Sequence record: PV565008.1
Strand: one strand, 5' to 3'
DNA length: 64,000 bases
DNA from: Pseudomonas phage vB_PaePA10145phi1_MKR2
The notes beneath the pieces are model-generated. The model searched no databases. It was given only the letters and a program-made list of their open reading frames with translations, and was not told the origin of the DNA. Shown piece after piece: positions 23,093 through 23,749 of the stretch. The translations under genes and the position numbers were made by a program. Every line of letters starts with the position of its first letter. Position 1 is the first letter of the stretch.

Positions 23093-23749
23093 ATGCTAAT
23101 GAATGAAATTATCGATATTCTAGAAGGAGGGAAAGAGAATATTCTCTTAACTAACCATCTAGGTAATGGCAAATATTCCAATGCGGGTAATGCAATGGCT
23201 GCATCATATGCCATTGCGGCACATACTGCTGTTGGTCAATTGCGAGATGGTTCAGGAAAACCTTACTGGCATCATTTATTACAAGTAGCTGAGATGGCGC
23301 AATTATTCGACCTATCTCACGCTGCTTATAAAGCAGCATGGTTACATGATGTAATTGAGGATACTGCTGTAACTGCTTCTGATCTAACTAAACTATTCTC
23401 AATCCCTGTTGTTAATTTAGTAACTGAACTAACAAATGTAACTTACGAAGGTAATCGTAAAACTAGGATTAGTTTACAACATGAAAGACTTTCTCGCATT
23501 TCATGGAGTGGTCAATCTCTTAAGTTACTAGATTCCATTTCAAACATGTGGTCGATTGTTAATGATAAGCCTGATTTTGCTGAACTGTATCTGACTGAGA
23601 AAGCTCAACTAATCAGTAAGTTAAATAATTGTCACCCCGCTATTAAAGATCTGGCTATATCTGTTCTCTATGGCAGGTGTACTATGGTTGGTGGGGATGC
23701 ACTAAAAGAATATAATAAACTATTTTCTGATAATGAAATTGTATGTTAA
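23093..23749 (+). CDS. HD-domain (p)ppGpp/(p)ppApp hydrolase-like protein (small alarmone hydrolase, RelA/SpoT hydrolase-domain homolog)
   Basis: 218 aa. Matches RSH hydrolase motifs GKPYWHHLLQVA (cf. GEPYIxHPLxVA), AAWLHDVIEDT (HDxxED), VVNLVTELTNV, LKLLDSISNM (cf. IKLADRLHNM). Confidence 0.75.
   Translation: MLMNEIIDILEGGKENILLTNHLGNGKYSNAGNAMAASYAIAAHTAVGQLRDGSGKPYWHHLLQVAEMAQLFDLSHAAYKAAWLHDVIEDTAVTASDLTKLFSIPVVNLVTELTNVTYEGNRKTRISLQHERLSRISWSGQSLKLLDSISNMWSIVNDKPDFAELYLTEKAQLISKLNNCHPAIKDLAISVLYGRCTMVGGDALKEYNKLFSDNEIVC

Follow-up and report, generated by a model that had tools for sequence, protein, structure and literature searches.

gp246 of phiKZ-like Pseudomonas jumbo phages, a predicted stand-alone small alarmone hydrolase

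Pseudomonas phage vB_PaePA10145phi1_MKR2 encodes, in the 64,000-nucleotide stretch of DNA analysed here (PV565008.1; hereafter, the window), a protein corresponding to gp246 of phage phiKZ, which profile, residue, fold and homology evidence supports as a predicted single-domain, stand-alone hydrolase of the RelA/SpoT homologue (RSH) type, that is, a small alarmone hydrolase (SAH), in a lytic phage. The product is probably an active member of the RSH family that is expressed early and would keep alarmones low in infected Pseudomonas aeruginosa. Phage enzymes of this class are known and have been validated by experiment, the gene is already annotated (RefSeq, PHROGs), and the finding as such is ordinary. 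The novelty implied by an earlier first-pass annotation of this DNA was overstated, since the gene had been annotated as phiKZ gp246 and phage SAHs have been tested since 2020. As a discovery the result is small: phage SAHs are already known to neutralise toxic alarmone synthetases (PMC7229694), and jumbo-phage examples were predicted in 2021 (PMC7824862). The roles proposed in the first-pass annotation, namely lowering (p)ppGpp and countering what toxic small alarmone synthetases (toxSAS) produce, are likewise those published for other phage SAHs (PMC7229694). The modest value of gp246 is that of a test case, given that phiKZ keeps its DNA inside a protein shell and does not rely on the RNA polymerase of the host to transcribe it; an enzyme of this kind would indicate that what the phage must neutralise is either toxSAS-type defences or those actions of (p)ppGpp and (p)ppApp that lie outside transcription, on translation GTPases and purine synthesis.

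The open reading frame (ORF) is present in the ORF list exactly as had been claimed; it starts with ATG and encodes 218 amino acids (aa). The product is 100% identical to phiKZ NP_803812.1, labelled “metal-dependent phosphohydrolase” in RefSeq, and the 2.5-kb stretch around the gene shares 95-99.8% identity with 46 records of P. aeruginosa jumbo phages. The four motifs from which the hydrolase domain had originally been proposed occur in the same order, PYWHHLLQVA at residues 57-66, WLHDVIEDT at 83-91, VVNLVTELTNV at 106-116 and LKLLDSISNM at 143-152, and the profile search suggested at that time bears the domain out. The Pfam model of the RelA/SpoT hydrolase domain, HD_4 (PF13328), matches gp246 with 45.8 bits (E = 6.7e-12), above its gathering cut-off of 27.2 bits, and the general HD model (PF01966) with 22.1 bits against a cut-off of 22. 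The NCBIfam model TIGR00691 (spoT_relA) is matched at positions 2-119 of 687 only, that is, in its N-terminal hydrolase part (E = 3e-16), and phrog_990, “metal-dependent phosphohydrolase”, is matched with E = 6.5e-56. Among sequence matches in the PDB, Drosophila Mesh1 comes first (9e-9), followed by Rel, SpoT and SAH chains, and no protein outside the RSH family appears below E = 0.1. The claimed absence of a synthetase domain also holds: Pfam and NCBIfam report the HD region alone, with no synthetase (RelA_SpoT), TGS or ACT domain. With 218 aa and the hydrolase part only, gp246 is ruled out as a long RSH of the Rel, SpoT or RelA kind.

At the level of individual residues, H44, Y58, H61, H85, D86, E89, D90, R122, K144, D147 and N151 are invariant in an alignment of gp246 with 24 homologues, R51 is likewise kept among the aligned homologues, and HMMER pairs the conserved residues with their equivalents in Mesh1, Staphylococcus aureus Rel and Lmo0812. 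The metal ligands H...HD...D, the ED pair, and both the arginine and the asparagine that the hydrolase motifs conserve are all intact. All characterised alarmone hydrolases require the HD motif and a bound metal (PMC10083569). The AlphaFold2 model of gp246 (mean predicted local distance difference test score, pLDDT, 90.1; predicted template modelling score 0.88) has the all-alpha fold of RSH hydrolases, and all 29 of the 29 Foldseek matches to PDB entries at E <= 0.001 are RSH hydrolase domains, the best with a target-normalised TM-score (TMt) of 0.85. The predicted model superposes on the hydrolase domains of MESH1, the P. aeruginosa SAH, RelH, SpoT and Rel. Its low-confidence part is an N-terminal extension, the two least confident blocks of which have mean pLDDT values of 62 (residues 11-20) and 52 (residues 21-30). 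This extension is present in phiKZ, in a 78%-identical relative and in PhiPA3 gp301, but not in 201phi2-1 gp325 or in gp099 of Salmonella phage SSU5. Purifying selection on gp246 is strong, with a ratio of nonsynonymous to synonymous substitution rates (dN/dS) of 0.066 relative to an 80%-identical homologue on a 6.4-kb metagenomic contig in which the order gp244-gp245-gp246 is kept.

The top structural matches of the model are human and Drosophila MESH1 (PDB 3nr1, 3nqw, 5vxa), with TMt of 0.84-0.85 and a root-mean-square deviation of 2.4-3.1 A over 177-179 columns. MESH1 is a Mn-dependent hydrolase of (p)ppGpp and (p)ppApp; it differs from gp246 in being metazoan, in sharing just 23-25% identity with it, in lacking the approximately 35 N-terminal and 35 C-terminal residues that are extra in the phage protein, and in being credited also with NADPH phosphatase activity. 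The SAH of the host, PaSAH (PDB 6yvc, 6z3n, 6z3o), has the same fold as the gp246 model (TMt 0.78-0.83), whereas the sequences are only about 21% identical (E-values 0.03-0.07); because of this low identity, a recent capture of the host gene as the origin of gp246 was ruled out. PaSAH breaks down both (p)ppGpp and (p)ppApp and is among the (p)ppApp-hydrolysing enzymes listed in PMC10083569. Aph1 of a Bacteroides prophage (PDB 7smg) is likewise an HD-domain alarmone hydrolase from a phage context and shares the HD motif of gp246, but fits the gp246 model less well (query-normalised TM-score 0.47-0.48 over 150-158 columns; sequence E = 0.008) and, unlike gp246, adjoins a (p)ppApp synthetase toxin. 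Aph1 is compact and (p)ppApp-specific, being devoid of two helices of the (p)ppGpp hydrolases and carrying D24 in place of the guanine-stacking arginine (PMC10083569). In gp246, R51 aligns with the arginine of the Rel R-K pair that is equated in PMC10083569 with Aph1 D24, an equivalence that is indirect, via Rel.

Homologues of gp246 were identified by tblastn in 199 phage records, including PhiPA3 (gp301), 201phi2-1 (gp325), jumbo phages of Erwinia, Dickeya, Serratia, Klebsiella and Burkholderia, Rhizobium phages and sashaviruses. PhiPA3 gp301 and 201phi2-1 gp325 are approximately 32-33% identical to gp246 in tblastn and belong to the same PHROG but have other gene neighbours; their GenBank records already state the similarity to phiKZ gp246, to which the PhiPA3 record adds “GTP pyrophosphokinase”. 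In PhiPA3 gp301 (L003:3396-4028), a serine occupies the position of the otherwise invariant H44 and a glutamate that of the metal-binding D147, so this protein may differ from gp246 in activity or specificity. The closest relative that we take to have been tested is SSU5 gp099 (SSU5_099, YP_006906731.1), a stand-alone phage HD_4 protein of 213 aa with the same conserved residues, which is 34% identical to gp246 over 145 aa (E = 4e-20) and also belongs to phrog_990; it differs in lacking the N-terminal extension, in having another C-terminal tail, and in its origin, a Salmonella siphovirus of the SSU5 type. No other protein of the family occurs within the first 100 kb of the SSU5 genome (the last 3.3 kb lie outside the scan), and we therefore infer that gp099 is the SSU5 PaSpo SAH of Jimmy et al., which neutralised all five toxSAS tested, as did PbcSpo of PVP-SE1 (PMC7229694). 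As to whether gp246 itself belongs to paSpo, it shares 34% identity with SSU5 gp099 versus 21-25% with MESH1 and PaSAH, in a comparison limited to these three. By its description, the “HD-alarmone PDease” of jumbo phages (groups 2 and 3; example BBI90576.1), which Iyer et al. 2021 placed among counter-nucleotide enzymes and proposed as a counter-measure to alarmone signalling (PMC7824862), has the same predicted function as gp246 and occurs in the same class of phages. An SAH of a Pseudomonas pakpunavirus has also been described (PMC12846349).

The gene behaves as an early gene, with mRNA present by 2 min, and the protein is made. In the time course of Gerovac et al. 2024, gp246 mRNA amounts to 0.3, 35, 79, 140, 194 and 215 at -2, 2, 4, 6, 8 and 10 min, respectively, and mass spectrometry detected the protein; its soluble form runs like a small particle, among the light gradient fractions with a peak in fraction 3, and not with the ribosomes, the ribosome-bound gp014 peaking in fractions 15-18 (PMC10914614 supplement). 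In a study employing antisense oligomers, gp246 counts in the control are 4591, 7372, 4333, 2126 and 1300, dropping after the second time point, and remain high, from 4327 to 10361, upon chmA knockdown (PMC12571901 supplement). A drop in the control combined with persistence under chmA silencing is the pattern of early genes according to the authors, and gp245, the gene preceding gp246, follows it likewise (PMC12571901). The two RNA-seq courses, both from the same group, agree on the temporal profiles of gp245 and gp246 but not on their ratio, the gp246/gp245 read ratio being about 0.35 in the early course of 2024 and about 4-6 in the antisense-oligomer course of 2025; library preparation is one possible cause of the mismatch. 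Given this disagreement, no conclusion is drawn from the relative abundance of the two transcripts, and an attempt to derive the operon structure from it was abandoned. Phage transposon sequencing (TnSeq) recorded 28 insertions in gene 246 when all reads are counted (Table S3) and 12 when counting is restricted to sites that have more than 2 reads and lie in the central 80% of the ORF (Table S2), and gp246 lies within the orf184-304 arm, which consists mostly of non-essential genes for which the authors propose host-interaction and defence-related functions (PMC12676376). On strain PAO1 in rich medium the phage can do without gp246, which is accessory.

Taken as an active SAH, gp246 would hold a divalent metal, probably Mn2+, through H61, H85-D86 and D147, as is typical of the family, and the metal together with E89-D90 would remove the 3'-pyrophosphate from (p)ppGpp, and probably from (p)ppApp, yielding GDP/GTP or ADP/ATP; pyrophosphorylated tRNA may be a further substrate. 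Transcribed within 2 min by the virion RNA polymerase, independently of formation of the phage nucleus, the enzyme would presumably act in the cytoplasm. With the alarmone level kept low, translation factors, ribosome function and synthesis of purine nucleotides would be spared the shutdown that a stringent response or one of the toxSAS type brings, and the phage, which still needs host translation and purine synthesis, would benefit.

Several observations weigh against this scenario. Transcription of phiKZ does not employ the host RNA polymerase, so that the classic target of ppGpp is irrelevant to transcription of the phage (PMC10914365); the benefit of gp246 would therefore more likely come through translation factors, nucleotide synthesis or neutralisation of toxSAS than through transcription. 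No enzymatic or genetic test of gp246 itself was found in the published literature. The substrate range is unreadable from sequence: MESH1, the best structural match, acts also on NADPH, and one of its entries is a complex with 3'-phosphoadenosine 5'-phosphosulfate (PAPS). In place of the basic R-K pair that Rel and most homologues carry beside the base-binding loop, gp246 has R51-D52, a small deviation, and Mesh1 likewise has an aspartate at the position aligned to D52. In gradients, 66% of the gp246 protein signal is found in the pellet (PMC10914614 supplement), and no fitness cost of gp246 insertions was seen in lysogeny broth on PAO1 (PMC12676376).

It is possible, although doubtful, that the role for which gp246 was selected is counter-defence, a reading that overlaps with the preceding one: the enzyme would reverse the products of CapRel, PhRel, FaRel2, FaRel or the type VI secretion system effector Tas1, namely (pp)pApp or the 3'-pyrophosphate on the CCA end of tRNA, and so rescue translation in aborting cells. 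The SSU5 PaSpo SAH, equated here with gp099, neutralised both (pp)pApp-producing and tRNA-modifying toxSAS (PMC7229694), the pyrophosphate on tRNA is taken off in vitro by MESH1 and by ATfaRel (bioRxiv 10.1101/2021.04.30.441581), and the accessory arm places gp246 near known defence-related genes such as gp241 and Tad1 (PMC12676376). Early expression also fits an anti-defence role. Nevertheless, we know of no toxSAS that restricts phiKZ, no toxin or immunity gene adjoins gp246, no PADLOC match was obtained, and none of the seven neighbouring ORFs matches the RelA_SpoT synthetase model of Pfam. Nor is gene 246 named in the main text of the TnSeq study, which discusses genes specific to a host or a condition (PMC12676376). 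A stricter variant, according to which this nucleus-forming phage would use gp246 solely against defences, with CCA-pyrophosphorylated tRNAs or (pp)pApp made by Pseudomonas toxSAS or by the Tas1 of neighbouring cells as its selected substrates and not (p)ppGpp, appears unlikely; if it were true, gp246 would be conditionally essential on strains with such systems, and the N-terminal extension, being specific to the lineage, could serve in targeting or regulation.

Even less probable is a non-alarmone substrate, such as NADPH, PAPS or pGpp, through which gp246 would reshape the redox or cofactor pools of the host. The MESH1 entries that head the structural matches include complexes with NADPH and PAPS, MESH1 is reported to have NADPH phosphatase activity (as cited in bioRxiv 10.1101/2021.04.30.441581), and SAHs are called promiscuous in the title of PMC9765508; however, the nearest sequence relatives of gp246 are not MESH1, with its low identity to the phage protein, but bacterial and phage HD_4 proteins, among them the toxSAS-neutralising enzyme of SSU5. 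Least credible of all is an HD-domain protein that is generic or has lost its catalytic activity and that serves in binding or as a structural component: while both terminal extensions are lineage-specific, the PhiPA3 homologue carries the substitutions at H44 and D147 described above and much of the gp246 signal is recovered in the gradient pellet, the residues for metal binding and catalysis are all intact in gp246, the low dN/dS indicates strong purifying selection, and gp246, unlike its neighbour gp244, is not a recorded virion protein. An active, early-expressed SAH that lowers alarmones thus appears to be the most probable interpretation of gp246, whose features are listed in Table 1 together with those of the surrounding genes.

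Table 1. Positions of gp246, its parts and neighbouring elements in the window
Feature	Position	Strand	Basis
gp246 ORF, predicted stand-alone RSH-type hydrolase (SAH), 218 aa	23093..23749	+	ORF list, phiKZ identity, HD_4, fold match
Predicted catalytic HD core, ~residues 36-180 (R51, H61, H85-D86, E89-D90, R122, K144, D147, N151)	23198..23632	+	homologue invariance, HMMER alignment, pLDDT 86-98
N-terminal extension, ~35 residues, low-confidence model, lineage-specific	23093..23197	+	pLDDT; homologue comparison
gp245, 144 aa, T4 Arn.3 / Pfam T4_Y16D family, adjacent gene	22628..23062	+	family match
gp244, capsid decoration protein	22221-22577	+	Pfam PhiKZ_gp244
Intrinsic-terminator-like hairpin, 8 pairs, 6 GC, T-run, 19 nt past gp246 stop codon	23768..23787	+	
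Terminator-like hairpin after gp244, upstream of gp245	22579..22598	+	
Exact TATATTAC with extended T-rich upstream motif, ahead of gp242	20756..20763	+	motif scan
Exact TATATTAC core, at which the unit transcribed from gp246.1 onward starts and the gp246 unit has its downstream limit	23827..23834	+	
TATATTAG, core of the early promoter with a single mismatch, across the gp245 stop codon and 31 nt ahead of the gp246 ATG	23055..23062	+	

According to the first-pass annotation, gp246 and the preceding 144-aa ORF, gp245 (together window positions 22628-23749, equivalent to phiKZ 239159-240280), form a unit with a shared promoter and terminator. The terminator-like hairpins on both flanks agree with this proposal, but the shared promoter was not found. 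Promoters were located by means of TATATTAC, which we take to be the core of the phiKZ early promoter (the early consensus of Ceyssens et al. 2014). No exact copy of this core lies ahead of gp245, the nearest being approximately 1.9 and 2.3 kb upstream, and copies with the extended upstream motif, at 20324, 20756 and 23827, stand ahead of gp241, gp242 and gp246.1. The assignment of TATATTAC agrees with step-ups in the RNA-seq data at gp241 and gp246.1, the latter being a rise at 2 min from 35 for gp246 to 207 for gp246.1 (PMC10914614 supplement). Since exact sites precede gp241, gp242 and gp246.1 and none precedes gp245, the early transcripts over gp245 and gp246 are most simply explained by read-through from upstream promoters, with the gp242 promoter as a likely source. 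The one-mismatch copy TATATTAG, which has a partly T-rich stretch upstream, might be a weak promoter or start site of gp246 itself, but is statistically indistinguishable from chance: such copies are no commoner in the window than expected (139 observed, 170 expected), and the upstream spacing of this one is unlike that of real promoters.

Across the window, eight exact TATATTAC sites on the plus strand (12335, 20324, 20756, 23827, 27491, 30176, 41532 and 50879) are intergenic, often just past a terminator hairpin, and share a common motif that consists of a T-run, AAA, a T-rich stretch, TATATTAC and then A. At 10229, 47471 and 48088, also on the plus strand, the core stands without that motif upstream, which suggests fortuitous matches; two further copies are on the minus strand, at 26878 and 33971.

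The family of gp245 is found in 1388 phage records and at least 1092 protein clusters, mostly in phages of enterobacteria. In PhiPA3, the gp245 homologue and the hydrolase gene are approximately 34 kb apart, and 201phi2-1 gp325 is flanked by other genes and not by a gp245 homologue. A functional coupling of gp245 and gp246 was considered and rejected, the gp245 family being far wider (1388 vs 199 records) and the pairing not being kept outside Phikzvirus; the two are probably not functionally coupled. A toxin-antitoxin context, with gp246 as a type IV antitoxin resembling ATfaRel, was rejected as well, as there is no neighbouring synthetase and no PADLOC match, and the upstream gene belongs to T4_Y16D.

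Downstream of gp246, a diverged phiKZ relative (contig SRR33991144_786631, L010:1861-1994) has no called gene for gp246.1: only 132 nt separate its hydrolase gene from the homologue of gp247, and the stretch compared with this gap is 23750-24157 of the window, in which gp246.1 encodes 87 aa (23868-24131). Upstream, transcripts of gp244 are present already at 2 min (60, rising to 354 by 10 min), an unusual timing for a structural gene, and presumably stem from the early promoters of gp241 and gp242 by read-through.
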